A DNA stretch of 57,215 nt, the filler included, from Dugesia japonica (taxonomy: Eukaryota), in the NCBI GenBank assembly GCA_001938525.1. It is 6 parts of 6 records of this genome, joined end to end, with 100 filler letters (N's around TTAATTAATTAA, not from the genome) between each part and the next. Parts side by side here need not be neighbours in the genome. Positions count along the whole stretch, not along the records: positions 48,957 to 57,215 come from MQRL01196957.1; 5 more parts are not named here. One strand, written 5' to 3'. The translations under genes and the position numbers were made by a program. Under the pieces are notes generated by a model. The model ran no database searches, was not told the origin of the DNA, and worked only from the letters and a program-made list of their open reading frames with translations. Below, in pieces: positions 6,112 through 57,215 of this stretch; the stretch's first letter is position 1, and the number at the start of each line of letters is the position of its first letter.

Positions 6112-6942
6112 ATAAAACGATAAAACTATCAAAATGTATTTCAACGGGCTCAATTTGCCGATCACGTATATGCTACTGGAAACTACAATGTTTACTGCAA
6201 TCATCGAAAACTCATCAGAATACTTAAAGGATTTTCTTGACATCGAACAAGTCTGTTCAGCAACAACAGTTTTCGCTGTTTTAACACCGACGAAATATCA
6301 CAAGATACTTCTCATATTAGGTTACAATTGTGATGAACATTATATACTTAACCCAACATCAGAATCAGAAAATAAAGATTAAATCAGTTTATGTCGTGAT
6401 TTTAAAGATTAATGAAATTAAAGAAGTCGATAATCGCGTTACAACTCAAATCAGGCCTATTTAGCCAAATTCTCTTATGTGCATTTATCAAACACTTTGT
6501 ACTTGATAGATCTCTTACAAATATAAATCTTAGAAATATTGGTGACACAATCAACAAACTTCAAACTATCATTGCAGAGAACAGCACTCAATTGAAAGAA
6601 AAATTTACACAAGTACAATAAAAAAATGCTGAAGCTAACTCTAAATGATAGGAAAAGAAAATGCAATGAACCTATTATCAAATCAAGATCCCGATACAAT
6701 TCTTAGTTATATAATAGAAAATATTCCGAAGATAAACTTCAAATCAAATTTGCATAAACCATATCTCGGCAAAAATCAAAACAAGACAGAATCAAATAAA
6801 CATCAGCTTAGATTTCAATTTTTGACTAACATGAAACGGACTGTTACAAAAATATTAAACAAAAACAATACACAATGTAATGTAATGCAAATCTTGAAGA
6901 CATTCTTAGTCATTTTAATCTTGAAGAGCCAAAAATAAAAAG

Positions 6943-7915
6943 TTGGGATTTCATATTAAAAAGCTGCAAAATATCAGACCATTAAGTTTCGAGCCAATTA
7001 GCGAAAACGAAGTACTCAGAGAAATCAAAAAAGCTGATAATTCCTGTCCTCGTCAAGATGGAATTTACTATAGACATATTGCGTTATTAGATCCTGAAGG
7101 TAAAGTACTCGTATTACTCTATAACAGAATAATTGAATCAAAAACTATTCCCTACAGCTGGAAAACCTTCAAAACATTTCTTATACCGAAACTAGGTAAA
7201 GAAGGTCAATATGAAAAAATCTGATCATGGAGACCAATTGCACTACTCTTTGTCATTTATAAACTATTTTCTGTTATTTTAAGACGACTAATCTGCTTGG
7301 TAAATTATAACAATCTCTTACACGTCATTCAGAAGAGAGGTTCAAAATTTGAGGGGTGCATTGAACACAACTCAATTCTAACAGCTGCCTTAGAGCACTC
7401 TAAATCTAGTTAGAGTCGTCCAATTGCGATTGTATGGCTTGACATAAAGTATGCTTTTAGTAGTGCTAACACACGGTTACTTATGGGCATTGCTACAATA
7501 TATTTGGGTTGAAAACGACTTTGCTAACATCCTAGAACTCCTATATTCTGATACATCCTCATTTTATACTTGTAGTTCAATAGTCACAACAAATATTCCG
7601 ATCAAGAGAGGAGTCAAACAAGACTGCCCATTATCTAAGATCCTATTTAATTTGGCAATCAATCCAGTTCTCCAATCAATTTATGGATCCGACACAAAAC
7701 CTTTTATTATAGGTGCATCGAAAATCCCGACTCTTGGATATGCGGATGATTTGGCACTCGTTGCAACTAATACTAAAGACCTTTATAAAATAATCAATAT
7801 AGCAATAGAATCATTGGATTAGAATTTCGTCCGGAAAAATGCTCTTATTTTCAATTACCTCAAACCAACTTCACCAAAGAAGTCTCCATAAATGAAAAGA
7901 AAATTAAAAAATTAG
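6943..7915 (+). pseudogene. Reverse transcriptase of the NeSL/Utopia-type element
   Basis: RT motifs from PGxDG-like through YADD, with stops and frameshifts. Confidence 0.9.
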
Positions 7916-8134
7916 CTATAGTTATAAGTTACTCAATGCTATATAGTTATTATTTACTCAATGGTATATAGTTATAAGTTACTCAATGCTATATAGTTAT
8001 AAGTTACTCAATGCTATATAGTTATTATTTACTCAATGGTATATAGTTATAAGTTACTCAATGCTATATAGTTATTATTTACTCAATCGTATATAGTTAT
8101 AAGTTACTCAATGCTATATAGTTATTATTTACTC
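7915..8134. repeat. 25-bp tandem minisatellite (about 9 copies)
   Basis: Unit TATATAGTTATAAGTTACTCAATGC with variant TATATAGTTATTATTTACTCAATGG. Confidence 0.95.
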
Positions 8135-8178
8135 TTTTTTATTATTATTAGTTATTATTATTATTATTAATTTTATTT

Positions 8179-9515
8179 AGTAGTGGTGTTACATAGCCAT
8201 ACAGACTTTAGTGTATACCCTTCAATATTTTTTATAAAATGTCAGATGTAAAATGTAAGATGTAAAATGTTATATGTAAAATGTCAGATGTAAAATGTCA
8301 GATGTAAAATGTCAGATGTAAATGTAAAATATAAATGTTTAATGTTACATTTTAATTTCCAAGGTTCACGTGCCTTAGGTGAAATATGATACATGATAAG
8401 TATATAAAATGATTTACAAAAGGCTATTAATTACTTAAATAAAATGGCATTAGAATATATTAAATAATTTACAAAGCTCATGTGCCTTTTATATAAAATG
8501 AAAAAATAAAATAAAAAGAAATACCCCTTTATTTTTAATGACAATTTTTAAAAAAGTATCTGCGATTAAAATATTTTATTAATAAAATGGACACTCCATC
8601 ATATAAATGTAATAACTGTATTAAATCATTTAAAAATCTAGCAGGATTAAAAGGTCACATCAATTCAAAAATTTGTTACAAGGTAAATATCCCATTTTAT
8701 TGTGAAAAATGTAATAAAAAATTCAGTTCACAAAAAACTTTACACAAACATTTAAATTCTACAAAATGAGGAAAAATAAAAAATTATCCATTAAAATGTG
8801 AAATATGCAATAAAACATTTGCAAGAGAAAATCACGCTAAAGCTCATTTCAATTCTGATANACATAAACAACTAGAAATTAAGGTTTTATTTGATCAACT
8901 TCCAGGTGAAGAGGCAATTAATTATGATCCAGAAGTTAGAGAACTATTTAAAAATTACACAGATTATGAAATTGAATATTTTAAAGATAGCGCAGTTAAA
9001 ATGAAATTAAATGTAGATGAAATATATGAACCAATTAGAAATATTATTTTATTTAGAAGAGAAATAATAAAAATAGTTAGAAAGTATTTTAGATATGGAA
9101 AAAAGATAATTATAAGTATGAGTGTTAAAAGTAATTATTCAAAACAAATAAATAATGAATATAAAGAAAGAAATTTTACTTCTATATCAGAAAATAAAAG
9201 ATTTACAAGATATAGAGATATAAAAAATGGTGTCACTGAAATATTAAATGAATTACAAAAAAATATTGAAGATGGGGATAAAGAAGGAAGTGGATGGTCA
9301 ATATCTTTCATTAAAGATTTTACATTAAATCTTTCTAAATATCAATCATTAGCTGGTGCAACATATTGCACTTTGCCATTTAAAAAACAAGGTGTTATTA
9401 ACATAATAAACCAAGATAATAAATGTTTTCTATATTCAATTTTGGCTCATAAATATAGAGATTTTGATCAACCAAAAAGAGTAAATAATTACATTCCACA
9501 TTTATCTGATTTAAA
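8179..9515 (+). mobile_element. Polinton/Maverick-like element: left terminus and 5' part of pPolB gene
   Basis: Begins AGTAGT; subterminal 14-bp repeats (TAAAATGTCAGATG, about 8235-8330); then a zinc-finger-pPolB ORF. Confidence 0.7.
8587..9515 (+). CDS. Three zinc fingers fused to the N-terminal region of a protein-primed family B DNA polymerase (one internal TGA at 8767; cut by gap)
   Basis: CNNC..H..C, CEKC..H, CEIC..H..H fingers in frame with EGSGWSI, GATYCTLP, VINIINQDNKCFLYSILA, RVNNY, typical of Maverick/adintovirus PolB N-termini. Confidence 0.85.
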
Positions 9516-9615
9516 NNNNNNNNNNNNNNNNNNNNNNNNNNNNNNNNNNNNNNNNNNNNTTAATTAATTAANNNNNNNNNNNNNNNNNNNNNNNNNNNNN
9601 NNNNNNNNNNNNNNN
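9516..9615. other. Artificial scaffold linker N44-TTAATTAATTAA-N44 (also 18637-18736, 27950-28049, 38241-38340, 48857-48956)
   Basis: Identical 100-nt gaps containing a six-frame stop 12-mer. Confidence 0.95.
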
Positions 9616-11554: not shown

Positions 11555-14295
11555 AGTTCAGTTAATTCCATTTCATGTTTTTGTGATTTTAAACTATGAT
11601 TGGTTTCATAACTTATTTCTATTGGATTACTTAAAACTTTATCATAATGCTCCATTCCTATTTTATTTACTTTTGAAACTTCTTTATGTTTAATTTCTAT
11701 ATTTTTGTTATGGTCTTGAATAATATCACTTTTTGCTTTTATATTATTTCATTTAACTATTTCATTTTTAGGTTTCTCATCTTTCATTTGAAATAAATTA
11801 TTCCCTAATAAACTTGTTACTTTATTTAAATTCTCTTGTCCAATTATTTCTACAAATATAGAATCTGTGTCAGGATAATGTATTTTGTATTTATTTGGTT
11901 TTTCTTTGTCTAACTGATTATAAATGAAATCATAAATTACTTCTTTGACATATTCTAAAATAGTAAAACCAATATATGGAAACTTGTTATTTTTTGTTTT
12001 ATGAAGATGAATAGCTGCTGATTCCGCTTCACCATTTTCTGTACATGTAAATATTTTACTTGATTTAAAATTAATTTTTGATTCAAATTTCTGATAATCT
12101 TTATCGTTATCTACTATTTCAACATTACATCTGTTTCTAATATTTTCTAATGTTTTTCCATAAAAAGTATTATTTAATAATTTAAAGAAATAATCACCAA
12201 AAACATCATTATTTCTTTTGGCTTCGTTTCTTTTATTAATATTAAATTGTATATAATTTTTTAACCAAGGATTTGTTGACATTTTATATTTTGAATGTAT
12301 TTTTAATTTTTATTCCTAAAGATTTATACAAATCTAAAGTACTTCCTAAAATAATATAATTTTGTTTATCAAGTTGATTTAAAGTTAATTTAATATTTTT
12401 CTTGGATAATTTCTTGTTAAAACTTAATTGATATGGACTTAACATTTTTGAGTTATATTTATTTGATCTGGTGCCAAAGGAAAGTTTTTGTCTTTTCATG
12501 AATTTCAGGTGGATATTCCAAATCAACTTCATACTTAATTTTATTTGTTGATTTTTCATATTTTAAGTCTTTACATTTGTAAATTTCACCTGTTGGTAAA
12601 GGCTTAGTCATACAAGATGAATACAATGAATTTTCATTTAAATATTTTAAATATGTTTCTTCTTTCTAATTTACAGGAACTATTTTATTTTTAATGAATG
12701 AAAATAATATACCTCTAACTTGTGCTTTATTGAATTGTTTGGTTCTTCCAAATCTAGTATTTGATTTTTGATTAACTGAAAAGACTTGTCTTTCTCCGCA
12801 AACACTGGAGTATCCACCCCGAATCCCTCTTTCAATTTTAATAAATCTATTATAAGTTTCTTTTTTTGCATATTTTTATTTTTGCCTAGTAAATTTCATA
12901 CCCATATTCGAAGTTAATCCCAGTGCAGAATAACAATAATATGGATCTATTTCATAATTATTTAAACACGTTTCTCTAAAATTTTCATTGAAATCTGCTA
13001 AAATAATTACATCTAGTTTCATATAATGTAACATATAATCAATTAAATTTGCAAAATTATTAAAATCATTTAAAAATAAATTATAATCATTTTCAGATAT
13101 TTTTTTTGTTTTAATTTATTATTAAATTCTTCTTTTGAAGGAATATTATTTGATTTTAATAAATTAATCACGACATTAATATTTTCTCCTTTTACATATT
13201 CATAAGGAAATACTATTTTCTTTGCATTTTAAATTAAATGCTTTCAAATGTTTATATTGTCCAGATTGATTTAACATTTCACCCATTTTCTCAATTGAAG
13301 TAAATGGGCTGAATCTATCTTGCTGAATCTAAAAATCTAATGTTTTCATATTGAAATAAAATATAAAATTTGTCACTATGTGGAATTATCTTTATAACTT
13401 TATTTGGATATTTACTAATTAATTCTTTAAAAAATAAATGATTATCATAACCTGATGCATTATGAAAATAAAATGGCATAAATAAATTCTTTATAGATTT
13501 ATCTTCTAAATTACATTTTGAGTGAGAATATTCTCTGAATTTTCCATCAAAGTGATCGTGATCAATTACTGGGTTTTCTGTTATTAATTTATCACAATAT
13601 CTACATTTCGTTCCTTGTGTAAATTTTGGATGGGTAGTTCCATTATAATATTCAATTAATTTATTTTCTTTTATATATTTTTAATTTATTATTAATTTGA
13701 TTTAAAAAATCAAAGAATTGTTCATGAATATTTTCTCCATGAAATTCTTTATATTCGTTTTGCATTAAATGCGGATATTTGCTTACCACATAAACTCCTA
13801 GGAATAGTGGTTTTTGTTTTTTGGTGTTGGAATTAGTCCAACTTTTAAAGTCCCCATAAACTACAAAGAGCCTTTTATTTTTATAATAATAATTTTGATA
13901 ATAATAATAATCATGTTTTGGGAATACTACATTACTAATTTCATGATTTATGCATTCATTTTGATGTTTAATTAATAAACCTTTACTTCTATAGGAATTC
14001 ATGCATCTAAAACATAAATAAGTTTTGTGTTTATTTGTTGAATAAAATATTTCTACATTTCAAAATAAAATAAAATGGTTTTTATAAACTAATAAATTAC
14101 ATTTATTTTCCTCTGGTTTTGATTTAGTTTCATAATGGGAAATATATAAAGGTTCAAGTATTTTAGAACCAGTTACAGTAAATACATTTATTTTCCAATT
14201 ATTTAATTTTTCAAATTTTTTAACATCATCAATATTTACAGGAAATTTAATTCCAGTTGTTTTCAATTCGTCTAAATAAGGAATATAATTGCTAA
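11555..14295 (-). pseudogene. Polinton/Maverick-type protein-primed DNA polymerase B with embedded endonuclease VII domain (frameshifted)
   Basis: GIKFPV..KFEKLN; ExoI VYGDFK; CRYC..DHDHFDG..HSKCNL; ExoII FHNASGYD; FPYEY; YMKLDVIILAD; GIRGGYS; motif A YLNENSLY; motif B KLLNNTFYGKT; motif C YPDTDSIF. Confidence 0.95.
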
Positions 14296-14299
14296 CCCC

Positions 14300-14600
14300 A
14301 TGTCTTAAAGCCGCCATTCCCCTACTACTAAAGCTTACGATAATATTAAACGAGCATCGCAGGCAATGATAAATCAAGGAAAACACCGTGTTAGTCACGA
14401 ATTCAAAGTAGGTGAAGACGTGTTAGTATGGAAAGACCTTCACAAATGGAAGAAGAATGATTTACTTTATGAAGGTCCTTATAAATTTACTGAATTTCTA
14501 ACACCTTACAAAGTTCGGTTAGAAACTCGACAAGGTTCCGAATTTAAAAGAACCAAATGGTTAAAGAGATGCGGATTCTAGAAAGAGAGGGAGAAGTTAA
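14300..14600 (+). mobile_element. Gypsy integrase C-terminus (GPY/F module) plus polypurine tract
   Basis: FKVGEDVLVW..YEGPYKF; AGAAAGAGAGGGAGAA directly after the stop. Confidence 0.8.
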
Positions 14601-40469: not shown

Positions 40470-41830
40470 ATCATATTTTGCTGTTAAAATGAAAGTCAAA
40501 CATAAATATCCTCACAATTAATTAAACAAATGATCCGGGAACTGAGAACAGCTGTGGCAACAGGCGATTTTATTTCTTACTGCTTTTCTCTGCTTGATTA
40601 CCAGAAATAACATTAATGTCTCTCTTGCAGCACACCAATTGGTCTTCACATCACAATAGCTCATGAATTGACCTTACTATTCTAATATTGCTGTCCACAG
40701 ATTTAATATTATTGATGACATCCAAATCAGTATTTCATAATTTAATATAATCGGTCTTGTATAGATTTCAAGTGAGAAATTTTTAAATTACTATGATTTG
40801 TAAGAAATACTATATCATATTCTTTATAGCAATAAATTCTTTGCATATAAAAAAATATTTAAAAGGTTAGACAAAAGCAGTGTGGTTTTGATCTGATTGG
40901 CTCAAATTTAGTACTTATGCACGTGGAATATGCTCATGTATATTTTGGTGTTATTTTCATTTAAATGTGCTAAATGTGCTAATCTATATTCACTGAAAAC
41001 ACTTTTATCAATCTAAGGCTCTCTTGTATCATAGATTTTCACTTTTTCAAAATTCTGACTATATATTATCTAAAGAATATTTGGAGTAAAATGCTTCCTT
41101 TTTTATACAAAAGGTACTGGCGCATGTAAACAGCTGATGGGTTATCGTGCATTTGCAAAAATTGTTCTATTTCTTAAATTTATCGTCCAATCAAGACAAA
41201 TATAGTATGTTGGTACGTAATTAGATGACGCACATTACTATTATATTTCCAAAGTCACAAAACCAAAACCCGAATCAATATTTGACAAAAATTGCTTAAA
41301 AATCTATTTAAAAGAGGTTTACAAAACAATTTTTCATTCCAATCATTGTTTTGATTCTCTTCCATAGATTGATAAATTTAAATGTAATGGGTGTAACGCC
41401 ACATACATTAGAGAGACTTCTCGTCATTTCTGTACCAGAAATCAAGAGCATAGTCGAAATAGTGGTAGTAATAATATTGTTGAGCATCGGAGAAAATGTA
41501 GAAAATCAATAGATTGTTCTGATTTTAAAATCTTGTACAGTGGATTTAATAATTATTGGGAGAGAGTGATGTTTGAAGCTTTGTTGATAACGGCTTTAAA
41601 TCCTAAAATTAATGTTCAGTTGACAGATTCAACATTGCTCTTAAAATTATTTTATTGACTTTTTATTGAGATTGCACAATTAAAAATATATAATCATTTA
41701 AACTTTGTAAAAAAATTGTTTTAATATTCCTTAATTGCCTGAAGATGAAAATTATTCCGTCGAAATTGGTAGCAATATATAAATATTTTAAAAAATGGTG
41801 TTCAATAATTTAATTTTAAATTTTTATTGT
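40470..41830 (+). mobile_element. Penelope-like retroelement (degenerate RT, GIY-YIG endonuclease, pseudo-LTR)
   Basis: VR.LDDA RT remnant; FKCNGCNATYIRETSRHFCTRNQEH..IVEH..DFKIL..ERVMFEALLITALNPKINVQ (about 41370-41658). Confidence 0.9.
41734..41776 (+). ncRNA. Minimal type I hammerhead ribozyme
   Basis: Stem I ATTGC/GCAAT, core CTGAAGA...GAAA, rudimentary stem III TTGG, GTA cleavage triplet; located just 3' of a Penelope ORF. Confidence 0.7.
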
Positions 41831-42599
41831 TTACATACACATTGCATGTTCATTGTGCGTAGATTTCATGTGTACGAATGCATATAGTATGCGTATATCC
41901 ATATACCAATCTTCTTACTCCTCTTGAATCCGTGTCCATTGCCAGCCTTGTACAGTAGTATCGAGTAGCCACCTGAAAATATGCAACTTCATCAAATATC
42001 GACAGCAAGAACGACCATCAGTTAGCTATAAGTGTTTTAGATTTACTCTCCTGGTGTTTTACTCTGCTGTCTCTTGACTACAGGAACTGGTACAATAATG
42101 TACTAGCTTACTACCAGCTTAACAGCTGTGACACGGTTGTACAAAACCATGAAAATGTATCTCTGCTTATATTTTCACAGTGTAAAATAAGTTGTAATAT
42201 TAATGACATAGATATTCCTTTTAAGGTTTATCTTTCCCGAATAATACTTGAAACTATGCTTCCCTATTCGTAATTTTATTTGCTGACATTATAGTTCATA
42301 AAATTTGCTCGTCCACAAGGATTCTGAATAATCTTTATACCAATTTGAAATCTATCTAATTTTATAAGCTAAATTTCATCAAATATACTACCTGTTAGAA
42401 GTCTGTTTCATTTCCATCATATTTATTAAATGACAATCTAAAAAGGAGGAATAAATATATAAGTAATTATCATTTGAGCAAAAAATATACGTTAATCAGC
42501 AAACAAAAATTGACCTGTTATGCAACATACAAAATATTTGAACTCATAGTCTAATATAAATTATGCAACATGCAATTTTAATAATGATTTATAAATTAT

Positions 42600-42924
42600 A
42601 AACCGTTTAAAACCACTAGAAATAGTAAGAAATATATATTGGCTATTACATCAATTCAACAAGTATATTTCATTAACATCGGTAATTGACCAAACCGAAA
42701 AAACTGTAGCAAATACATTAAAAAATCAGTGGATTTTGAAATTCGGGGCACCTAAAATTATTACTTGTGATAGAGGAAGATTATTTGATTCGAGTTTGAT
42801 TAGAGAATTGACAGAAAAACATGGAATAGAGTTTAAATTCTCAAGTCCGTATCCTCTTTATAGTAATGGACAAATCGAAAGACAATTTCGAAGTATAAGA
42901 GAATTAATTATAAATTTATTATAA
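42600..42924 (+). mobile_element. Gypsy integrase core fragment
   Basis: WILKFGAPKIITCDRGRLF..SSPYPLYSNGQIERQFRSI. Confidence 0.9.
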
Positions 42925-43859: not shown

Positions 43860-44271
43860 TTACAAAGACAAAAATTTGTCTTTGTTTTTCTGATATTCAT
43901 TCCACCTCCTTATAGCATAACTAAAGAAAAATCAAATAAATCATGTTACATATAAACAAATTACTCCAAATAATCAAAATCAATAACAGACTTCTGATAT
44001 TGCCAAATACTCCACATACACCACATTAAATGGGAAGCCTTATAATATATTTATATTATTTTTAAATAAAGGTAAAATTATCAAACCAGAGAAAATTTGT
44101 TAACCATTTTATACCAATGTTCAATTTCATTTTCGTCTAACCGATGTGAATCATTACTTTCAGCAAATCCATTCAATTCAGACGCATTGAGACGACATTC
44201 TAAATACTGACGGATCCATTTCTTTTGAAAGACTTCATTGGGAAACAAGGAATAGTCTGGCTTTTCTAATC
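43860..44271 (-). CDS. ETNK: Ethanolamine (choline/ethanolamine) kinase, last three exons: 44271-44087, 44038-43965, 43920-43860
   Basis: Spliced product GLEKPDYSLFPNEVFQKKWIRQYL..VNKFSLASHLMWCMWSIWQYQKSVIDFDYLDYAIRRWNEYQKNK..*; 48- and 44-nt GT-AG introns. Confidence 0.9.
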
Positions 44272-45202
44272 CTTAAAAATAAATTAATAATAATTGAAAG
44301 GATATTTTATCTATATTATGAATTTGTAGTTTACAAAATTAATAAATGACTGAGTTCAATTGAATGATATATTGATTAATAGATATGTTTGCGTTGCTGA
44401 TTCAGTAATATTGATTGTTTAAATCATAATGGTTTGTATTTATTCCTCAATTTCAGATATAGTAAGTAGATCAGCCACCTTGCCCTTCCTCCACTCTCAG
44501 TCGGTAAAGTGTACTATAAATTTGGTGATTTGAAAATTTTGCAATTTGATTTATCGACACGTTTTAGTAGAAACATTTTTTAATTTCAACTTTGATTAAT
44601 CGAAAATTTTGCACAAGAGAATTTAAATTTTGTAGCAAAATTTTCTTGATAAAAAATTGTTGAAGTATATCCATGGATACGTAATGCAATGATGGAGATT
44701 ACTATTTAGTTAAATTTTCATTCGGTAAAGAAATGTTAAAAATTGAAAAACCACGTAGAGTCATCATTCTATAAACACATATCATCGTAAAACCTGCACT
44801 ATTGAATAGACAATTAAACACTGCCTACACTATTTAAGGACTACTATCGCAAAAATCTTCATTTCCACGGAATTTCTGCCCCAAAGAACAAAAAACAGCA
44901 GCCGACTAATCGACTTGTAATAATAAAAGTGATAGTTGATTATTTAGTTAATAACATTTGGCATGAATTAATTAGCCAATTGTTTTAAATTTTAGCTCAG
45001 ACCACGATTAGGCGGTTCTTAAAGTCAAGGAACCTTACTCAACAATAATATTATATTAATACTAATCGTATTAGTAAAGTCAAAAATTTAAATAGTTTTC
45101 AATAATTACAGATTAAACAACTTTAAAAGCTTTCTGGGGTCGCGGGCCGCAGTTCACATTTTTCCACTTTTGCACTATCTTACCCTATTTATGACATGAT
45201 AT

Positions 45203-45520
45203 ATATATGCATAAGTTCACATCGTTTTAAGACGAATAATTTTTATTAATATTATTACAAATAACACAGTACATTCAATCAAAATATTTTTCATCGTTAT
45301 TCACGACTTTTCCCCATCTTTAGGTAAAAGATGAATGCCCTTATAAAAAAAGTCTTTGCTCTTGAATTGAATGTAAATGTCGATGAATTTTCGTGCTTCT
45401 TCAATATTCCCGAATCGTGTATCGGAAAGACTGCGCTGCATGGAACGAAATAAGTGAAAATCTAACGGGGCTATATCTGGAGAATAAGCCGGTTGTGGTA
45501 GAACTTCACATTTTAAAGCT
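45203..45520 (-). mobile_element. Mariner 3' fragment
   Basis: LPQPAYSPDIAPLDFHLFRSMQ..GIHLLP..WGKVVNNDEKYFD*; TA-flanked end. Confidence 0.9.
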
Positions 45521-45619
45521 TAAAATTAATAACAAGTTTGAATAAAATAAGAATCTTAAATAAAATTTTTCATAAAAATATAATTAAGGAAGAAAGTGTG
45601 CTGGCGATAGCTTACTGAA

Positions 45620-46620
45620 ATGTTAGTTAGATGGGTATGTCTGCATTTTGAAATCCAGCTCCTTTGTATCACCTTTATTTGCGTTTAAGGCTAATCAAAG
45701 GCAGAATTCAAGAGATGTTTGACTGAGAAAAATTTATTTCTTTGCATTTAATCACACAAAACGCTGTCTCATAAAGGTGGGTACTTCCAAGTATTGAAAA
45801 TAAGTGCAATCAAAAGTCGCATAAAATAGAACAATGTTGTTCAGAAAGAAGAGACCAAAATTGATTGATTGGAAGTGTGACTTTGCCTAATAAAAACTGG
45901 TAACTTTGTAAGTCACATAATCCAAGTTGCAAATCTTCATCAGTTCCTGATATAATCATGGTCAGCAGAGCATTTGAAAACACTGAAGCTTTCTTCAAAA
46001 TGCTGAAAATCTTGAAGTCACTCACCAAAGTTTATCATTCAGAATATCAAAAGTATCAAAAAAGCACGAAAAATCAATGTTCTCTATTTCTTTAGAAATA
46101 GCGTCGCATCTTGGAAAATGAATCAGATATCTTTTGAAGAGCTANNNNNNNNNNNNNNNNNNNNNNNNNNNNNNNNNNNNNNNNNNNNNNNNNNNNNNNN
46201 NNNNNNNNNNNNNNNNNNNNNNNNNNNNNNNNNNNNNNNNNNCTTTCGAAAAATTAACGTCTTGCAATAAACTTCCAAATCCATCATAGCCTTAATCCAG
46301 TTCTTCTAAAAAATGCTGAATATCATTACACATCCGCAAGAATTTTCCGGCCCTAAGTTAACGAACGGCAGAATGGAGTAAAACGTCAGAAAATTCCATA
46401 TTTAAATCTCTCAAGAAATCAAAAATTATCTAAGAGCTTTGTTGTTTATCGTAATGCGTGACATGACGACTGTGGTAGTGTTGTTGTACATTGTAATNTT
46501 CATAATGAAAATCGTTTCATTACAAATAAAACTTAAAACTCGCCCACTTTGTTCTTTTACCAGTTCTCTCAATTCCCAATCACCATTGAATTGATGCTTT
46601 TCGTCAGAGATTTCTCATTT
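45620..46620 (-). mobile_element. hAT Buster/Charlie-type transposase remnant
   Basis: LLHSAVR*LRAGKFLR (HxxVRWLS.G), QFWSLL, GSTHLYETAF C-terminal motif. Confidence 0.75.
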
Positions 46621-47129
46621 CTGAATCATCATAAAAGACTAAGATACTAAATCTAAAAAGACAATATTGAACATAATATGCATATAAATTTTACATTGCT
46701 AAAATACTTCAAGCTAGAAAATGAAATGATCGTATTAAAGATAGCGCTCAACCTTTTATTATTGCATTTAATTATGTATACATAATAATAGCTTTAAATA
46801 AAATCCACTTAAACCAAATGTTTGTTCCTTTAAATTTTACTGTTCAAGAGAAATATTCAATGTTAAACCATTGAATTATAGAAGGGTTGTCCAAAGGATG
46901 ATCCACACCCCTCTCTAATGAGGCTCGCGGTCTCTTCTAGAGAAAATTTATAAAATTAATATTTAGATGTTCACTTTTCGATTAAATTGAAAGCTACGAT
47001 CAAATGTTGCTTATTTTATTATTTTTTTAGTAGTTGTTAGTATTTTGAATTTTGTCATCTTCAGGAATTAACTTTTTGATTTATTTTATTTTATTGAATT
47101 TTAATTGGTAAATTTATTTAATTATTAAA

Positions 47130-47898
47130 AATTACATTGATTTTAGATCCATCTTCTTTAATTAGTAATTCTTGATGTTTCTTTCTGTGAAGTATAGAAA
47201 TGTAGCCTGTTCCTAGTGTTTTCCATGTTATATGATATTAGCTTAGTTTTCTTTTTATGAATTTGGATTTCTTAAATTCATTCTCATCTGAACAGGAATT
47301 TATTACACGAACTCTTTTATGATTACTAGAGCGGTGTGTCTTTATAATTTTGTCAATTAATTCTATATAATGATTATATGCATCATTGTCTTCTACCTTA
47401 TCATATTCATTATCACTTATATTGTCCTCATAATCACTAAAATCGTCCGTTTCTAGCTTAATTTTTCCATTTCTTCTTTTTTTGAGAATACCGTATTATG
47501 AAATTACCTTCACGACAATAAAATAAATAAAATAATTATTATAATAATGACTATTAGTGATATTATAATAATGAATATTAAATATATTTCCTTACTTCTC
47601 AGCTAATAATTGTCTTACCAGAAACAAAAATTATAACTACGATACTTAACATCAAATGAAATCTTCACGAAGTAATTACGGTATCATGGGTGAAATATCA
47701 CCCTAGATCAATTTTCTTTGTTGCGCAGCTAACAAAGTACTTAACAAAAGTGAACTTTAAATGATAATGGTATCCCTACTGACGTCATAAGTGATTACAC
47801 GAAAAATTAGTATTACCAGTAGTTCGGTTTTTTAAATAATATTAGAAAAACAATTGATGATGGGTGATTTTTCACTCATGATACTTTTTAAGAGTTAA
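47130..47898 (-). mobile_element. piggyBac 5' fragment
   Basis: TTAA|CTCTT terminus; subterminal inverted repeat GTATCATG(G/A)GTGAAA(T/A)ATCACCC at about 47681 and 47862; acidic N-terminus SDYEDNISDNEY..KRVRVINSCSDE. Confidence 0.65.
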
Positions 47899-48229
47899 GC
47901 ATAGTTTTTTAATTTATAAAAAAGCTATTATACCAAAATTTGGAATATGTTATCAATTACATACATGCAAAGATATGTCTAAACATATTNTCTTCAATCT
48001 ACGTGATATTGTACCTGTTATGATAGTTAAAACTCATGGCAAATTTGAATATATTTTTATTATCATAAGAAGTGCATTTAAACAAATATCAAAATACTTA
48101 ATTGATATTTATTCAATAAATATATTGCCACTTACAATACTACACATCAAATTATGAACTGATTTAACCAGATATGAAAGCTAGTTTCAGTCGATCATTA
48201 CCAATTTGATTGTTATTGTTTTCCTATTT

Positions 48230-48856
48230 AAACCTCGATTTATGACCTAGGGTGTACCTGAGTAGCTAACTCGTAAACCATGAAAAGTCTCGTTACATAA
48301 CCATACTTTATCTCATGTTTCAAATTCGTTTTGGCATAAATATTTGATGGTTTTGATGCCGTGGTATTAGATCGTTATTGTAGGACCTAATATTTTGCAT
48401 ACTTCATAATTTGCTTCTGCTTGTAATGACTCGATTATCAAATTTCCTGGAACTGTTGTATCAGATCTATAAACCACTTGGTTGAGTACCGTGTTAGTGT
48501 CTGTGTTAATAGAGTTATGTAATCCTAGAAGAACTTTATGAAGAACTTGCAATTATTTATGATCCGCATAGATAACATACGCTCTTAGAATATTTTTGAG
48601 AGTTCGAAGGAAACATTCCACTACATTATTACATTATGGATTTTCGATAATCATTATCAGAACTTATTGAAGGTTTCAGATATGAATTGACATCCTTGAT
48701 CCTAAATTACTATTTTTGTTGCACCTAATAATATACTTGTACACTAACTTTTTGATTCCGTAAACACATTGTAATTATTTTGATTCAAACGAAGTCTTAA
48801 AAATATAAGCTTGATAATTAATTTTTAATCTTGAAATCTAATAATCAAGGTTTCAC
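48230..48856 (-). mobile_element. Gypsy integrase remnant
   Basis: VECFLRTLKNILRA, LHKVLLGLHNSI..NQVVYRSDTTVPG. Confidence 0.75.
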
Positions 48857-48989
48857 NNNNNNNNNNNNNNNNNNNNNNNNNNNNNNNNNNNNNNNNNNNN
48901 TTAATTAATTAANNNNNNNNNNNNNNNNNNNNNNNNNNNNNNNNNNNNNNNNNNNNTTTTCTTTAATTAACTTTATCCTCTCGAGCTTG

Positions 48990-50605
48990 GTAATTTTTGA
49001 GAGGGATTATTGCGCTCCTTGGAATTTCTTGCTGAAATATGCTATTACTCGCTCTCTCCCCTGTTCCTCCAATCGTCTTAGCGCTGTGCCAATTGTGTAT
49101 CCTCTAGCATCCGTAGCTTGTATAAATGGTTTCTTGAAATCTGAGTCGACTAGTATTGGTGCAGTTAATAGCTTGTCTCGTAGCAATTCAAAGGCTTGTT
49201 GCTGTTCTGGTCCCCATATGAAGGCTGTATCTTGTTTAAAGAGATCCTGCATAGGTTTTGCTATTTTTGTGAAATCCTTAATGAATTTTTGATAATAATT
49301 TGCGAATCCAAGGAATTCTTATATTTTTAGTACACAATTTGATGCTGCGAGTTTCCTGATCTTTTCTGTGTTAATGGTCCGCCTTCTAAAATTAAGTGAC
49401 CCAAATAAGTGACCTTATTCTTTGCCCACTCAAACTTGATGGGTTGAATCTTTAGATTCCATTTCCGTAATCTGATAAATACATTGCATAAGTCTTCTAA
49501 ATGACCTTCAAATGTGGGTGAGTATATGACATACACTGAAATATGCCGTGTGTCACATAACTCATCATCCATTGAAACGATGCTGGTGCATAAGTGATTC
49601 CAAACAGCATACGAATGAATCGATTAAGATTTTCTTCCTATTTTTCATTATCGGTTTTGATGGGTGTTAATGTGCCTATTCTGGAGTTTGGTTTGATGGT
49701 GATATCTTTTTAATTAAAGTACTAGACTTATTGGTACTTCTCCGCTTTTGTTTATCGTGATCACTTCACCTGCTGTAGGTAATGCATATTGTTGTGCAAA
49801 TCCGTCATAAGGTTCGAAATAACAATCTCTTTCATATTCGCTTTTAGTGTTAACTACACTAAGCATCTGCTTGGCACCACAATTTCTTTTGTGGTGAATA
49901 CTTCGTGGTCCTTAACATAAGTATAACCCTCCAATGACTGTAAACACAATGTAGAGAAANTTAGCACTCCATCTCTCATCAGATCTGGTAGTAAGTCTGT
50001 GCCTAAAATGCACTGTCCGGTCATTTTGACGGCTATCATGTTGTGTCTGACTTTATTTTTAATATATTTTACTTCACATCGTATTTCTCCGAAGATTTTG
50101 AGACTACTCCCATTTGCCACGTCAGCCGTAGTATTTGTAGGTAATATGTTCTTATATTTCGTTTTGGCGATTTCCTCTATTGATAATAGTGAAATAGTTG
50201 CTCCGGTGTCAAATAGTGCTGAAATCGGTCTCCATTGATTTTGACCGGAATTATTAATAATGGTCCGCCTTCAAAGCTTGCACAATTTACTTCGGCTGGC
50301 CTTAAAGTTTTGCTCGACAGTTTGCTGTTCCCTTTCTTTCTGTCTTCGTTCTCGGTTTTGATATCTCGTCCAATCAGCTCTTACCATCGTGGTGGTATTA
50401 TTAATTCGCCTACATCTCTGATTTTCATTGTATGGGTTGTGGTAGTACGGCCATATTTGATATGCTATTATCGTTGGTGATTGGTTTCGTTGTCGTTGTG
50501 GATTTCGTCTGTTTGTATTTCCCTGGCTAGCACGTGGTTAACGTTCCGCAGTACTGTCTTGGATGGATAGACTCCTCAAGTCTAGTAATGCATCAGGACA
50601 TATTC
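48990..50605 (-). mobile_element. Gypsy element B: gag tail, protease, deleted RT, RNase H
   Basis: ALFDTGATISL..CILGTDLL; FIRMLFGITYAPASFQ; HLEDL..VTYLGH; FLGFANYY; FIWGPEQQQAFELLR; TDARGYTIG; VIAYFSKK. Confidence 0.9.
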
Positions 50606-51240
50606 TTGTTGAAAGCCAGTTCGTTCATTACCAACATCTTATTATACAGCCGAACTCCATCGAAATCGATTAAACAGATAACCTCTCCAATAAGCGATAC
50701 GTTTTTCTCGAAGGCCATGGTAATGTCTCCTTTGATAATTTTTATTTGATTAAACCGATAATCTCTAATCACTCTCTTATAAACTAGTGTTATGCTGGCT
50801 CCTGTGTCAATGATGCCAGTTATCCATTTCTCGTCAATTCGTATTCTTTTCCGTAAAAATGCAAAATTCGTTGTTGTCATGATGCAGATGGTTTGGGTTA
50901 ATAATCTGATAATTATCTGATTATTTGTTGCACACAGACTTTGGTCAATTGTCCTTCTATCGTTAACTGATAATTGTGCTACATTGTTATCTGTTAGTAA
51001 TGCAATGTTAGGGTATTGTGGTGAACAAATATATGTGGAATTGTACAATGGACCTTGTGCACACACTGGTAGTAGTTGCTTGTTTATTGGTGGCCAGCCA
51101 TGTTGTGGATAAGCGTTGTAATACATTTGAGCAGGTGCTGGTACGTTTTCAGTTCCGCCGAAACGAAGCGCATTTTTTATCCGTTGTAATTTACTAGTCT
51201 TCAAACATTGTTGTCTTTTGTAATCCACATCGTATTCCAT
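50605..51240 (-). pseudogene. Retropepsin aspartic protease of element A (C-terminally truncated)
   Basis: IRIDEKWITGIIDTGASITLV; lacks the closing ILG.D motif. Confidence 0.9.
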
Positions 51241-51469
51241 AGGTATATTAGGTAGTCCACTGCTTTATCCTCTATCGTCATCGCTGCTGTTGCTACAATC
51301 GTTACGGCTTTTTAATCTCTCTTTAAATTGATCGAATTATGATATTTACTTTTTACTGTTACCCTTTTCCTCGCATAGTAATCGTAATTGCATAACTACC
51401 TCCTTGTCAGATCCCCGTATCTGTCCGAGTTTGCGTATGAATCTTTTAACTTGATCTATGTCTTTTGAG

Positions 51470-53230
51470 TGACTGTTTAGTACTATTGTTTTAGCTAAGA
51501 ATGAAAATATTCCTGTTACCATTTTCCAATTTACTTTCTTTTCTCGTTTGTAAATGTCAAAACAGGCGAATAGTTGGTTTATTACTACAATTTAGCTACT
51601 GAGATTATCAGCATGACTCCTAATAATCTTGCTATAGGTTGACCGAACACTGAATCATCCCCACATTTTCTTCATGAAGTTTTCTGTGGATTTCTGAAAA
51701 TGATCTGCTGATAGTAGTACATCATAGTTGATATGACCCTCTATGTTGGACCCACTAGTCTATTTTACGATGTTTGATAGGCACTGCATTTTTCTGAATG
51801 GAAATAACATATACCCTCTTACCTTTTCCAAATCTTCCCTGCTGTAGATGTCTCCTTTGCTTGAATCGATTGGGGTCAATTTCATCCCTCCGTTTCACCG
51901 TAACATTGAGAATTGTCTAGGTTCAAGTCCTATTGCGATACGTTGTGGGTACCTTATCCATGATCTGTCTGATAAGACATTTTGTTGTCCGAATACGTTG
52001 GAACAATTTATGATATTTGGTTTATAACCACGAGATGAGATTATTCTGGTAATTGTTTGTGTGTAATGTTTCTTGTTTTTGTATATAATTTCCAATTCAT
52101 TATAACAGTGTTTCGGGTTAGATGAGAATTCAGCATCTATATCTTTACACTTGTATAGGTACATAACTTTTCTTACTACTTGGCGGAATTGTCCTCTTTC
52201 TAATGGAATTAGTAGTGTCACGCCATCTGGATTAGTGACTTCCATGGTCAGTTTTGTTTTCAATATCTCCTTGTTTAATGCACAATCATTTATAGTATTA
52301 AGTCTTGGTACACTTCATCGATGATATCTTGAGTTCTATGAAATAAGTTATCCACTTTATTATAAGTATATAGATGTAATTTTATATCCTGTGACATTAC
52401 AGTCACTTGACTTCATATGATTTTACATTCGGTTATAAATATTTCTTTATAATTGGTTTTATGCAGTATTTGTCAGCATTTTGATATAGTATCACCTTTT
52501 ATGAGACGTATTGTTTCATCATGTTCAGATGACATTAGTACGGTGGGTGTAATTTGCCAATTGTAATTATCGGATTGTGGCCGTTTTTTCATTGCTTTCT
52601 TGATATTTGGTATTCCTTCCTATTTTGGGGCTTCTTCGACAGCCGCTAGGGTCCGTTGGCTCTGATATTCGTTAAACATTCCTTTCTTTAGATGTGCTAA
52701 CTTGCAATCCTGGTAATCGACTTTGTATGTCAATGTTGATGAACAAGTGTTGCATGATCGATCCGCCACCCCAATATGACCTCGTTTTCATCGTCAGGTC
52801 TTGTGCATCAAAGAATGTTTCATATTCCTTGAGTTCTACCGTGTATGTTTTTATTGCTACTGCATATTTCGATACCTTTCCTCTTATAGTGTATGTTCCA
52901 TATTCGCATTCCCCTTTATGTGTGGATGTACCTCCAGCTGATTTAAACGGTTGGTCTATAATGTGCCCCTTTTTTGCGATAATCTGTGGACCATGTTTGA
53001 TGGTGAATTTGCTTGTTGTGAAACCCTCTTCCAATTGCTGACTAGTTATATGTACAGGATGTTTAACTATTCCAGGGTCTATTACAGATGTATAGCTGTA
53101 ATAACTGCAATGGAATATAAACGTTCGTACTATCACTATACACTCGCGAATTTGTGCTTTGTAATAATCCGATATTATTTTCTGCCAGTTCGCTTTTACT
53201 TTTGCGTATACCTGTGGATGTTGATAAAAA
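51470..53230 (-). pseudogene. Chuvirus-like (class III) viral fusion glycoprotein
   Basis: RECIVIVRTFIFHCSYYSYTSV, SAGG..GECEYG, DCALNKEILKTKL, VMYLYKC..HCYNELEI..TITRIISSRG..INCS..W..YP, DIYSREDL, then membrane-proximal and transmembrane segments (FSVFGQPIARLLGVMLII; WKMVTGIFSFLA). Confidence 0.8.
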
Positions 53231-53399
53231 TTGAGTAACTGATTCATTACTCGCCTTCTCCCGGTAGTGGTTGTTGATGCTTCTATTGTTTTGTATAAGA
53301 TTTTATTTATCCATTCGGATTCTGGTGAGGAAATTATTATTCGTTTCCTGGTGTCTTCCATCTCGATAACTTCTGTTAGTGCATCGTGTTAGTTATGAA

Positions 53400-54560
53400 T
53401 TTTTCTACGTGTTTTAATCATATTACACTGATTCTGGTGTGGTTCATTGAGTAGATTTTGTTTTGCCAATCTTGCTTGTTGTACTTGTAAATCTTGATTT
53501 TGCNATTGGAGCCATTCGTTTTTTNGTTGGGCTTTATTATAAACGTTGTCATAAGTGCTTTGTTGTAGTAGATTGACCTGCCCTTTATTTTCATTTAACC
53601 GTTGTCGCAGTCACTCGTTTTTTGCATCAAGTTGTTGAGGTTTATATTCGGATTTCGATTTTTATAATTTCGTTGATTTCTATTTCGGTATTTCTTTACA
53701 ATATTATCTCTTCTATTGCATTTGTAACAAGTGATTAGGTTTTTAGAAAACAGGTTTTCATGGTATGATTAATTTTCTTACAAAAGGTGCAGAAACGGTT
53801 CATATTGCTATTGCCTTTGCTTCTACATTCTCTTACTATGTGTCCTCTTTTGCCACATGCATTACATTGTATATTCTGTTTATTCTGCTAATTATTTTGT
53901 TGTGAGTTAAATCATCCTCCGTTTCCTTTGGGTAATTAGGCTTAGTGTTTCTGTTGTTCCGTTCCTGTCTTGGAGTCAGAGTTTTCATCATCGATTGTGT
54001 ATTAGGTATGAAATCTGATATACGCGGAATAGTTTCTTCAGTTCGGCCTTCCACCTTGAGTATTCGTACTGTTGATCGATCTGACACAATTCGCAGGGTA
54101 GTTAGTGCATCTTGGAGTGTCGTAGGTTTACTCAGTTTTAACATGAGATTTGCATTCTCGTTGAGTAGTCTATTTAAAAATATGGACAATATTTGGCTGT
54201 TTTACAGTTTATCTTCTAGTGTTAATTACCTCGTCTTTTGAGCTCCATCATATATGCCTGGTAGGATTCTCTTCGTTGTTGTTTTCAATTGGTGAATTGT
54301 TCAAAATCTTGACCGGTTAGCTTTAAGTTCATGAAATTGTCGGTTAATATTGCCACCACTTTATCCCATGTGGCACGGATCTCTTCCATACCCTTAATTT
54401 AATCTCAAAAAACAGTTTTGGCGACACCTGTTAGGTATGTTGGTAATTGGCTCCTCTTAGCTTTGTCATCCCATCAGCTGGTTTTGTCATAGATTTCGTA
54501 GTTTTGTATAAATTCATCCAATTTTTCCGGTATTTCGCTAATGTATTGTTGGGGTGAAAC
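53400..54560 (-). pseudogene. Gag of element A with CCHC zinc knuckles
   Basis: FIQNYEIY..WDDKAKRSQLPTYLTGVA; KPTTLQDAL; CNACGKRGH..REC, CTFCKKINH..TC, CYKC. Confidence 0.85.
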
Positions 54561-54644
54561 ACTTCATTACCAAAACAAGAATGATATAAAATTCCAATAC
54601 GAAGTAATAAGAAGAAACGAAAAATCTGGTAAATGATCAATACT

Positions 54645-55480
54645 GACCGTTAACTCAGTATCAATTATTAAATTATTAAAGAAAACTCATAAAGATTAAA
54701 AAATAACAGATAGACGAAAATGTATTCAAGATTACTAATAATAATTAGAAGAATTAAAATTTATGCTGGAATATATTAAATTAATTAAAATGAAAATTAT
54801 GCTAAAAAAATTAATTAATTTCATTTGAAAAAAGAATATTAATTATGAGAAAATCATTTTAAGGGCAATATCTTGGCCCCAGATGGTCAAAAAGAATCCA
54901 AGAAAGAAAATGTAAAGAGAAAAAGTTACGGGGCAGTTGAATTTCCCAACGAGAAGACTCTACCATCATAAGGAGAGTCTAGAAAAGGTTTCGAAGATTC
55001 GGCCAATAGTAGACCAGAAAATAATGAAAAAACAAAGAAATAGAAAACACGAGATGTCCTAAAAATATGCACCAATAAAACAGCTAAAAATCATGAAAAC
55101 TTTTATAGAAATAGAAATGGTACCAATTGGAGAGGCTAAAACAAAAATAAAATTAGAATGCCAATGCAAACCAAGTTGTGGTGCATGGGAAAATGGTATA
55201 TAAACCCCCATATTTTAGACACAAATATCCAAAATTTAACTACTTTATTTTGATCAGTTTGTTGTAAAGAAATAACAGTAATCTTTGGACGAAAAGAGAA
55301 TAGATTACCGTAATACTCTCATCATTTGACTTGAATTAAATTATCTCTCATAGAAGCTGGAACTACGTCAATTAACTCGTTGTCACATCGCTCGGAGAAA
55401 ACCGAAAAACTAACCCGTAGCAGAATTCCGGAAAAAAGGAATCTTTAAAAGTAGTTATTATATTTTTATTTGGATGTGAA
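54645..55480 (+). mobile_element. Purine-rich LTR-like repeat, related to 39586-40380
   Basis: CACCAATAAAAC, GTATATAAACCCCC, ATTTTAGAC..TCCAAAATTT, TCAGT. Confidence 0.4.
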
Positions 55481-56039
55481 TGATATGTTGTGTTATAATA
55501 AATATTTAATGATAAAAGGAATTACCTGATTCGATTACTAAAAGTAAATAAATCTAAAACAGAAAAACACATAAAATTCATAGTAAATTTTATTCTATTT
55601 TATCTAGATAGTGAGCATAATTTTAGTTATATTATTCATTAAGCCCTTGGCGGAACAGATCCAAACTGTTAATCTGCATAGTAAAACCGATGCTTAATTC
55701 CACGATGAGCAATTGTGTCTTTGTCTACAAATTTTCTTTTTACTCCACAATTATGGTTAAAAAAATTTGACCCATTAGCAGTACACTGTTTAAAGTTTTA
55801 TAAGTAAAAATTTGAGATTTTTAAAGTTTAATACGTGCTTTGTTTATAATTCTTTTGGTTTTTTAATGTAAAAATTAGTTTAAATTATTATTTTTAATAA
55901 TTAATTAATTATACGTATTGAAATAATCAATTTGAAGTTAAGTTTAATAATAAATTATATGTATTTTCGAAATTTAGACATTATTTATGAAAAGAAGACT
56001 TAAAAGTATATATATTTTTATTACATAATATCTTTAAAT

Positions 56040-56540
56040 TTTAAACACGCTGCATAAAATGTTTTAACTTATTATAATAATTCTTCATGCTAGTGTTTTT
56101 ATCTTCCCTAAATATTGAAGAAATTGCTGATTTGATTTGATTAAATTTTGAATCCGAATTTAATTCCAAATTATTGGTCAACATTTTCCGCAATTTGGAT
56201 TTAAAATGGGAAAATAATTTTCGATCGGATTTAAAAATGGATTGTAAGGTGGAAGGCTGACTATCTTGTGGTGACTATTGTTGTGAGAGTACGATTGTAG
56301 ATGGACGCATTATCATGTATAAGATAATATTCATTCGCATCAAATTTAAAAGATAAATCCAGAATAAACTTTTGGTAAATCACTTGATTGATGAACCCTT
56401 GATGTACTGAAAAATGAATTGGTCCATTGATGCCAATAGCCATTATTATTGATATGTTTTGGCTTCGTTGACGTGGGACTTGAATGTACGCATTTTCTCC
56501 ACTTATGCTTCTTCCTTTTAGCCTTTGTATCTACACATTG
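56040..56540 (-). mobile_element. IS630/Tc1-superfamily DDE transposase remnant
   Basis: MAIGINGPIHF..YLIHDNASIY; frameshifted LPPYNPFLNPIENYF. Confidence 0.85.
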
Positions 56541-57120
56541 CAATAGGTCTCGTCAATTATCAAGAGGATGAGATAAAACAAAAACAGCAGCATTTAGTCA
56601 AGCAATTTGCCACAATTAATGAACTGCAACAGTCTCACACAGTTCTTCAACCTATCTCTCATCCGTTAGTACTACCAATCCTACCACACCCAAGGAATTT
56701 AATCGTTTTTAATCCACCCAAATCATCATTAAACCCTGATGCTCCTGAATGGCAACCAACCAACTCTGGCCTACCAAGACAATTCACACCATTAATAATC
56801 CAGGATTCTACACTAGCCCCAGTCAAACCTAAAATACCCGATTGGATAAACAAAATAATCGATCAGGTCCCACACATACTTCAGCACCTTCCACAATGCC
56901 AACTCAACCCAGAAAACCAGTACCATTGGTAATACAAGAATCCCAAAATAACCAACTCGGTTTTGCAGCACCCAGCTGGATACCCAGTAGGACCTCAGTG
57001 TGGAATCATAACCAATTTAAGAGAAACCTGTCCCAATCAATCGTAATCGAAATATTACGGAAATACGGCTCTATCCTAAAAGCGAACAACCAGAACAACC
57101 TAGCAGAGGAAGTCGATTAG
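56540..57120 (+). pseudogene. Pro/Gln-rich gag-like ORF remnant with PAM2-like motif
   Basis: SSLNPDAPEWQP in a low-complexity ORF abutting the Tc1-like insertion. Confidence 0.35.
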
Positions 57121-57215
57121 AACGAGCTAGACTCGATGTATATAAACTGTAAATAATAATGATTCATTGAACTAATTGGGTAAACGAACTTTAAATGTAT
57201 TAATGTATACCGTAG

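Follow-up and report, generated by a model that had tools for sequence, protein, structure and literature searches.

One continuous gag-env-pro-pol ORF is reportedly carried by the nematode endogenous retroviruses that are compared with our locus below. In the planarian Burro elements, env is described as lying in frame between gag and pol (PMC6431247). GAG-ENV-POL elements with a gB-type env are described in flatworms, nematodes and bryozoans in the consulted parts of PMC13524379, which also report chuvirus-like env beside gypsy pol as widespread and not mainly a BEL/Pao feature. The first-pass annotation of the present locus had placed chuvirus-like glycoprotein capture mainly in BEL/Pao elements and had regarded the architecture as not well described; neither statement is borne out by these parts of the two sources, and the architecture is not new.

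The window, which is the whole stretch of 57,215 nucleotides of Dugesia japonica DNA analysed here, contains a broken Ty3/gypsy-type copy with gag, a chuvirus/gB-type env, two consecutive proteases, RT and RNase H, which is likely a member of the published flatworm-type GAG-ENV-POL group; we assign this reading a probability of about 85%. Because the layout has been published for flatworm and nematode elements, the locus probably represents an unremarkable dead element of a known group. The relatives, and the fold of one of them, support the proposal of a relic of an enveloped LTR-retroelement, here a Ty3/gypsy lineage whose single membrane-spanning polyprotein comprises Gag, a class III fusogen and Pol; the two publications remove the novelty that the proposal implied.

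Overall structure of the locus

Pfam, tblastn and translation place gag with zinc knuckles, a Monjiviricetes-type fusion glycoprotein and a retropepsin in this order on the minus strand (Table 1), and frame reading agrees that the layout first noted, with a Cys-patterned glycoprotein leading in frame into the retropepsin, is real. The order gag, env, pol on one strand is seen at the locus itself, which measures ~5.6 kb from gag to RNase H. The contig had been described as single and gap-free, which holds insofar as the nearest gap is located at 48857-48956, but three single N (49960, 53504 and 53525) are present inside it. The window as a whole is a graveyard of mobile-element fragments.

No LTR-sized direct repeat was detected in 44000-57215. 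Only two purine runs of at least 12 letters (51545 and 50341) are located between gag and RNase H, and neither is followed by an LTR, in agreement with the earlier observation that no PPT or LTR intervenes between gag, env and protease. No LTR or integrase linked to the copy was found; the 3´ end is lost at the gap, and an integrase remnant beyond the gap has env-less proteins as its best matches.

Two other origins of the layout were weighed. The abundance of mobile-element fragments, together with the lack of a common frame for gag and env, would suit a chance nesting in which gag, an endogenous chuvirus glycoprotein and protease derive from unrelated insertions. This origin is very improbable, as env runs in frame into the first protease (PR1), and one set of relatives, with one domain order, is matched by gag, env, protease and RT/RNase H alike (tblastn). 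Furthermore, seven of the 11 best env matches (E up to 1e-30) are proteins longer than 1200 aa, and all seven have protease or pol domains after env. An assembly artefact joining repeats could be suspected in a repeat-rich draft (1901 N) in which more than 1200 related contigs per run map to the locus; however, contigs at depth 5-10 with few differences, from runs of two studies, span 52821-53295, 50983-51544 and 49891-51011. These low-depth contigs cross both the env N-terminal junction and the junction between PR1 and the second protease (PR2), and such an artefact is hardly credible.

Searches for other copies gave little. A search of metagenome contigs with the relative P0003 as query gave 212 pattern matches, none of which was confirmed as a related locus. 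Word-based searches retained 0 of 315 candidates with a 139-aa env piece and 3 of 117, at most 48% identical, with an RNase H piece. The Atlas matches were all under 0.9. Approximately a quarter of one RNA run gave 27 reads, all less than 95% alike, and a second run gave none.

Table 1. Features of the retroelement copy, in window positions.
Feature	Positions	Strand	Evidence
gag, capsid-like N-terminal part, with stops	54234..54560	-	tblastn, 25-30% identical to the gag of env carriers (lowest E 2e-5)
Two CCHC zinc knuckles of gag	53750..53869	-	Pfam zf-CCHC E 0.0012, zf-CCHC_4 E 0.079; sequence
gag-env spacer; no signal segment, ubiquitin-like or Bcl-2-like domain detected	53173..53749	-	hydropathy; relatives' profiles
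env, Monjiviricetes/chuvirus-type (HSV gB-like, class III) fusion glycoprotein	51430..53172	-	PF24664 E 8.3e-38; tblastn to P0003 35-42%; fold of relative P0001
env membrane anchor; frame differs from flanking env blocks, no stop in frame	51594..51650	-	hydropathy peak 1.82
env tail and linker, in frame with PR1, three TAA stops	50875..51429	-	frame reading
Retropepsin 1 (DTG at 50808); no C-terminal motif visible in its frame	50596..50874	-	Pfam RVP E 0.15; blastp against the proteases of relatives (set of 72) E 3e-10
Retropepsin 2 (DTG at 50210)	49941..50270	-	Pfam gag-asp_proteas E 8.1e-5; weak grouping with RT-proximal proteases
Protease-RT linker (dUTPase-like position), frameshifted	49660..49926	-	weak blastp to same linker of env carriers, best E 0.001
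RT remnant, N-terminal part deleted, YxDD motif lost	49378..49637	-	Pfam RVT_1 E 0.021; 42-49% to env carriers
RT connection and RNase H start, ending just before gap 48857-48956	49007..49414	-	Pfam RT_RNaseH_2 E 3e-16; best matches env carriers; tree

Gag and the gag-env spacer

The comparison set comprises 275 proteins, of which 114 are long and contain an RT motif, and 20 of these contain this env. The gag similarity to relatives extends over 54530-54234 (tblastn), and the six best matches of the window gag among the 114 long proteins are env carriers. The two zinc knuckles lie downstream of this stretch and ahead of env, as first annotated; the zf-CCHC match scores 19.3 bits, under the Pfam cut-off of 20.8. 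A third, degenerate CCHC knuckle follows the two in another frame. By eye, the spacer had suggested a helical, ubiquitin-like or Bcl-2-like domain in decay; this idea is unsupported, as the relatives' profiles match nothing there. Frame continuity from gag to env is visible in the relatives and not in the window copy.

The env glycoprotein

The env aligns to its relatives from 53172 to ~51430 (tblastn), which confirms the proposed length of ~580 codons. The relatives' Pfam match begins ~60 residues ahead of the window alignment, so that the N-terminal ~60 residues of env are absent, as expected from the suspected deletion of the signal peptide and N-terminus. The frame changes four times, near 52780, 52295, 51660 and 51590, and at least five stops are present. 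With the signal segment absent and LTRs not found, the copy is dead. Stops, frameshifts and deletions also set the locus apart from intact elements, for which PMC13524379, in the part consulted, takes uninterrupted ORFs as the inclusion rule.

The frame that leads from the WKMVTG tail of env to the IIDTGAS protease contains exactly three stops, all of which are TAA (51348, 51339 and 51267), as originally read. The membrane anchor sits in a different frame from the tail.

The AlphaFold model of the env of relative P0001, which is 37% identical to the window env over the matched stretches, has a pLDDT of 81 and matches herpes gB in the PDB (E 1.6e-13) as well as chu-like viral glycoproteins (E 1e-41). 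The gB/chuvirus G fold anticipated at the outset is thus predicted for a relative, and the model of P0001, as distinct from one of the window env, supports a class III gB-like fold for the latter.

Proteases, RT and RNase H

Protease, RT remnant and RNase H follow one another in gypsy order, and the contig ends before integrase. No dUTPase-like domain was matched by Pfam in the protease-RT linker, which weakly resembles the linker of the relatives. The 10 best matches of the RNase H stretch among the 114 proteins are env carriers. In a FastTree tree of 67 rows, for which the 12 best env-less rows and every third one below them were kept, this stretch falls within a clade of 19 env carriers and 3 env-less proteins (support 0.90). 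The window branches are long in both the protease and the RT/RNase H trees. The earlier view, in which the element had no RT of its own, is probably mistaken: positions 50270-49007 contain a second protease, a deleted RT and RNase H, all of which group with the env-carrying lineage. Judged from sequence, the RT remnant and RNase H would belong to the element.

The presence of two proteases also permits a composite origin, in which an element A (gag-env-PR1) was joined by deletion or recombination to an element B (PR2-RT-RNase H) of the same env-carrying lineage. An origin from two elements would explain why the six best matches of PR1 are RT-proximal proteases, but PR2 sits with 24 of the 27 RT-proximal proteases (SH-aLRT 90) and PR1 outside them in a quick and weak tree. 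By eye, the stretch near 50420-50370 resembles the start of a protease-RT linker, yet blastp gives no linker after PR1 (best E 7). Deletions have also removed the env start and the RT start; conversely, no LTR or gag is present between PR1 and PR2, and at least two protease motifs occur natively between env and RT in 10 of the 20 env-carrying relatives. We regard the composite origin as possible but doubtful, and favour one broken copy with two consecutive proteases.

Domain order in the relatives and a proposed mechanism

The env precedes RT in the same ORF in all 20 env carriers, and 13 of the 20 also have a CCHC knuckle upstream. The count of 20 is biased: each protein was retrieved either by env or by the pol of a protein with env before RT, which leaves no way for an element whose env is a separate downstream ORF to be counted. 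In a weaker match (P0034), env follows a DUF5641 domain. Hydropathy detects a hydrophobic segment ahead of the conserved A/G-Y/F-D-C start in 10 of the 14 relatives having that start, and, in all 15 that extend far enough, an anchor after the ectodomain. As in Burro, the relatives show ubiquitin-like, Bcl-2-like and ankyrin segments; the Bcl-2-like segment was recognized from a weak Pfam match, an alignment and PMC6431247.

We infer from these features that intact members would make one polyprotein. Targeting of the ectodomain to the ER lumen would depend on an internal signal segment immediately ahead of env, which signal peptidase would cleave. Past the ectodomain, the anchor would bring the polypeptide back to the cytosol, where RT, RNase H and integrase would be released by the retropepsins. 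Particles may then form by budding of Gag through membrane that carries env, and the class III trimer may fuse them with another cell. The window copy is incapable of this cycle, as the signal segment is absent, env is frameshifted and RT is deleted.

The single copy matters little, being dead and of published layout. The lineage, unlike retroviruses, would derive its capsid, its fusogen and its replication enzymes from a single polyprotein that spans the membrane, and the extra proteases in half of the relatives offer a handle on polyprotein processing and particle formation. These extra proteases may be the undescribed part of the lineage. More tentatively, accessory retropepsins immediately after the env anchor (two to five motifs in the env-RT interval, and further ones after integrase), with their own role in cutting Pol free, together with a second membrane protein after integrase, could define an undescribed multi-protease branch. 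Duplicated proteases are not described in the literature searched or in the main text of PMC13524379, although its ORF maps may show them.

Comparison with known elements

The Anakin BEL/Pao elements share the env family and are Pao-type host elements (PMC7642597, as far as consulted). In contrast, the window RT/RNase H matches Ty3/gypsy proteins, the retropepsin families are gypsy-type, and env lies 5´ of the protease. The nematode endogenous retroviruses (Sacco et al. 2022, doi 10.1099/jgv.0.001739, as cited in PMC13524379) share ENV before POL and an RNA-virus-type glycoprotein. The 10 nematode env rows compared do not line up by eye with the window env, and the consulted part of PMC13524379 assigns them to separate clades.

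The Burro/GYPSM1 giant planarian retrotransposons, as described in PMC6431247, share env in frame between gag and pol, matches to mononegavirus fusion glycoproteins, two to three CCHC knuckles and a protease-RT linker. In Burro, a dUTPase-like domain occupies this place between protease and RT. Their env placement is mirrored by the env-to-protease frame at the locus and by the single ORFs of the relatives; the gag-to-env frame is not visible in this copy. Burro has a 4,873-aa ORF and exceeds 30 kb, far longer than the copy described here. Cargo domains (ubiquitin-like, BCL2, BIR, ankyrin and MATH) have no Pfam match at the locus, nor do the ubiquitin-like and Bcl-2-like profiles of the relatives match, and a deletion could hide them.

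The 'ancient errantiviruses' Smed_errantivirus_1-6 (HSV/gB-type ENV, group Platyhelminthes_C1a) in the consulted parts of PMC13524379 share a gB-type env, the GAG-ENV-POL order and, as far as the protease, RT remnant and RNase H of the copy extend, a Ty3/gypsy pol. These elements are intact and mostly multicopy, whereas the window copy is decayed, its env has no signal segment, and neither LTRs (in 44000-57215) nor a linked integrase were found; its two proteases have no counterpart in the main text on these elements. The HSV/gB-type class III env is present at the locus, as indicated by the PF24664 match and by the resemblance of the relative's fold to herpes gB. Domain I of the window env aligns ungapped to Smed_errantivirus_5 and Smed_errantivirus_6, with 45 and 42 of 130 residues identical (hand count on supplement rows), within the 32-64% of the four pairs shown.

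Domain order and decay of the copy

The copy, a decayed Ty3/gypsy-type element, was searched with Pfam in each minus frame, with stops read as X. The matches, together with the alignments of related database proteins, bear out the minus-strand order of gag, env and protease proposed in the first-pass annotation. The first retropepsin (PR1) is followed by a second (PR2), a linker, RT and RNase H; the RT lacks its N-terminal part and the YxDD motif. Env aligns to relatives in three long blocks, and its membrane anchor lies in a frame that differs from those of the other env blocks, so the env frame changes (n = 4). At least five stops lie inside the matching env blocks. Between the env tail, which begins with WKMVTG, and PR1 there are exactly three stops, every one TAA, as originally counted. 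Pfam env starts approximately 60 residues ahead of the window's alignment start in relatives (residue 130 versus 191 in P0001, 146 versus 206 in P0002 and 133 versus 195 in P0006), and no hydrophobic segment is found upstream of env in any frame, which indicates that the signal segment is absent, as the annotation had proposed. The search for LTR-sized repeats returned none, in agreement with the earlier view that no LTR separates the domains.

Features of the copy and of its surroundings in the window
Feature	Position	Strand	Evidence
Zinc knuckles (gag)	53869-53750	minus	weak Pfam match
Env, Monjiviricetes_fusion PF24664	53172 to ~51430	minus	Pfam E 8.3e-38
Env membrane anchor	51650-51594	minus	
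Retropepsin PR1	~50810	minus	weak Pfam match
Retropepsin PR2	~50210	minus	Pfam E 8.1e-5
RT remnant	downstream of PR2 and linker	minus	Pfam E 0.021
RNase H	after RT remnant	minus	Pfam E 3e-16
Integrase remnant, beyond gap	48725-48403	minus	env-less proteins match best
Integrase remnant, probably of another element	42595-42924	plus	
Tc1/mariner-type DDE transposase remnant, upstream of gag	56190-56566	minus	DDE_3 E 3.1e-6
Non-LTR-type reverse transcriptase remnant	6925-7822	plus	RVT_1 E 1.2e-7 for 7448-7822
Second non-LTR-type reverse transcriptase remnant	32753-33891	plus	by eye
ORF resembling Penelope-like GIY-YIG endonuclease	41368-41658	plus	by eye; no Pfam match
Pieces like Polinton-type DNA polymerase B region	11749-14422; 8770-9567	minus; plus	PF03175 E 0.009; endonuclease VII E 3.6e-5; C2H2 finger
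Tandem array, 14-base unit	28171-29300		
Tandem array, 37-base unit	29854-30297		
Tandem array, 25-base unit	7867-8184		

Lineage of the pol part

The element's own RT had been regarded as missing, which is probably wrong: the downstream RT remnant and RNase H best match the relatives with the same env family (env carriers). Among 114 proteins, env carriers account for all ten best matches of the RNase H stretch and nine of the ten best of the RT stretch. A FastTree tree (67 rows, 204 columns) puts the window, on a long branch, inside a clade (support 0.90) made up of 19 env carriers and three env-less proteins. These best matches and this clade place the pol part in the env-carrying lineage. 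That the pol part belongs to the same insertion as gag-env-PR1 is less sure, at roughly two chances in three. In a quick protease tree, 24 of the 27 RT-proximal proteases share a group with PR2, and PR1 falls outside it; neither sits in a well-supported set. The six best BLAST matches of PR1 are all RT-proximal proteases. The integrase remnant beyond the gap probably derives from another element.

Env fold and domain order in relatives

The fusogen fold was checked on an AlphaFold model of the relative P0001 (pLDDT 81, pTM 0.56, 75 sequences). As the annotation had anticipated, this model matches herpesvirus gB (E 1.6e-13, TM ~0.3-0.4) and chu-like glycoproteins (E 1e-41).

With the env-to-protease frame as query, phmmer returned 251 matches at E <=0.001 and 11 at E <=1e-30 among 1.84 billion representatives; seven of these 11 exceed 1200 aa and have protease or pol domains downstream of env. 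Together with a second search seeded with the pol of P0154, 275 proteins were collected, of which 114 are long with an RT motif and 20 of the latter contain env. Env lies upstream of RT in a single ORF in 20/20, an order toward which the gathering method is biased. Of these 20 carriers, 13 have a CCHC knuckle ahead of env, and 10 have at least two protease motifs separating env from RT. In P0034, a weaker match, env is located after DUF5641. Ten of 14 relatives have a hydrophobic segment ahead of the conserved start of env; an anchor is present behind the ectodomain in 15/15.

Several retropepsin motifs per polyprotein occur in P0002, P0006, P0008, P0151, P0154, P0162, P0174, P0176, P0189, P0192, P0197 and P0201, where the motifs lie in the env-RT interval and, in addition, downstream of integrase (maximum seven, P0151). 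The gag-env interval contains Bcl-2-like segments in P0001, P0002, P0020 and P0128 (Pfam Bcl-2 weak in P0001, E 0.00096) and, by eye, ubiquitin-like segments in P0008, P0020, P0128 and P0154; neither cargo was detected in the window. Two further hydrophobic segments downstream of integrase in P0005, P0006, P0023, P0151 and P0154 suggest a putative second membrane protein at the C-terminus. P0219 and P0227 have immunoglobulin-family Pfam entries. P0005, a 2627-aa env-pol polyprotein of the same lineage whose record calls it a hypothetical protein from a Flavobacteriaceae MAG, is likely animal DNA binned with bacteria.

Assembly support and sequence setting

Logan contigs of sequencing runs X2 and X4 (two studies), either of which could itself be the assembly's source data, were aligned at 85% likeness to 48960-53503, a range that runs from RNase H to the gag-env spacer. 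Spanning contigs have a depth of 5-10 and few differences. They bridge the junction at the N-terminal side of env (52821-53295 and 52821-53247), the tail of env (50983-51544) and the boundary between PR1 and PR2 (49891-51011 and 50256-50656); no single contig covers the whole range. Most aligned contigs are <95% alike (1096/1260 and 1155/1338), and depth, when summed, climbs into the thousands over portions of env, linker and RNase H, versus ~8 around PR1. Many related copies are therefore present in the source organism, and the depth sums are not a copy number.

AT content is high across the window (GC 17-38% per kb), which has 1901 Ns and contains abundant mobile-element fragments throughout. 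Gaps of 100 bases with a TTAATTAATTAA spacer in the middle lie at 9516, 18637, 27950, 38241 and 48857. From 54560 to 49000 the minus strand is constantly A-rich with only single Ns (n = 3), and the next gap is 48857-48956. The Schmidtea genome is >70% A/T, according to PMC11410931; the AT content of the window, taken with the env resemblance to the Smed_errantivirus elements, may point to a planarian-type host.

Proposed mechanism for intact relatives

The domain order, env family and env-to-protease frame are directly established, as are the single ORFs and the two hydrophobic segments flanking the ectodomain in relatives. The following steps extrapolate from the way membrane polyproteins generally behave. 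A signal within the chain would direct the ectodomain to the ER lumen and then be cleaved, and the anchor would bring the chain back to the cytosol, where retropepsins could free the pol enzymes. Gag would bud through membrane bearing env, whose class III trimer might mediate fusion with another cell. The present copy cannot perform such a polyprotein or particle cycle.

Comparison with known systems

Over 53172-52783, the window env is identical to Smed_errantivirus_5 at 45 and to Smed_errantivirus_6 at 42 of 130 ungapped positions (hand counts); the 10 nematode and 10 bryozoan env rows shown do not line up with it by eye. PMC13524379, which describes GAG-ENV-POL errantiviruses, credits a nematode ENV-before-POL case to Sacco et al. 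2022, and BEL/Pao elements with a chuvirus glycoprotein are treated in PMC7642597. The lineage has a habit that may be new, namely several retropepsins and, downstream of integrase, a putative second membrane protein; a limited literature search, including terms within the main text of PMC13524379, found no description of either. The copy does not pass as an intact GAG-ENV-POL errantivirus, and it differs from Burro proper, the giant planarian elements (PMC6431247), in size and cargo. It works like a GAG-ENV-POL errantivirus of flatworm type and most likely descends from one; the copy is real but dead, and its kind is known.
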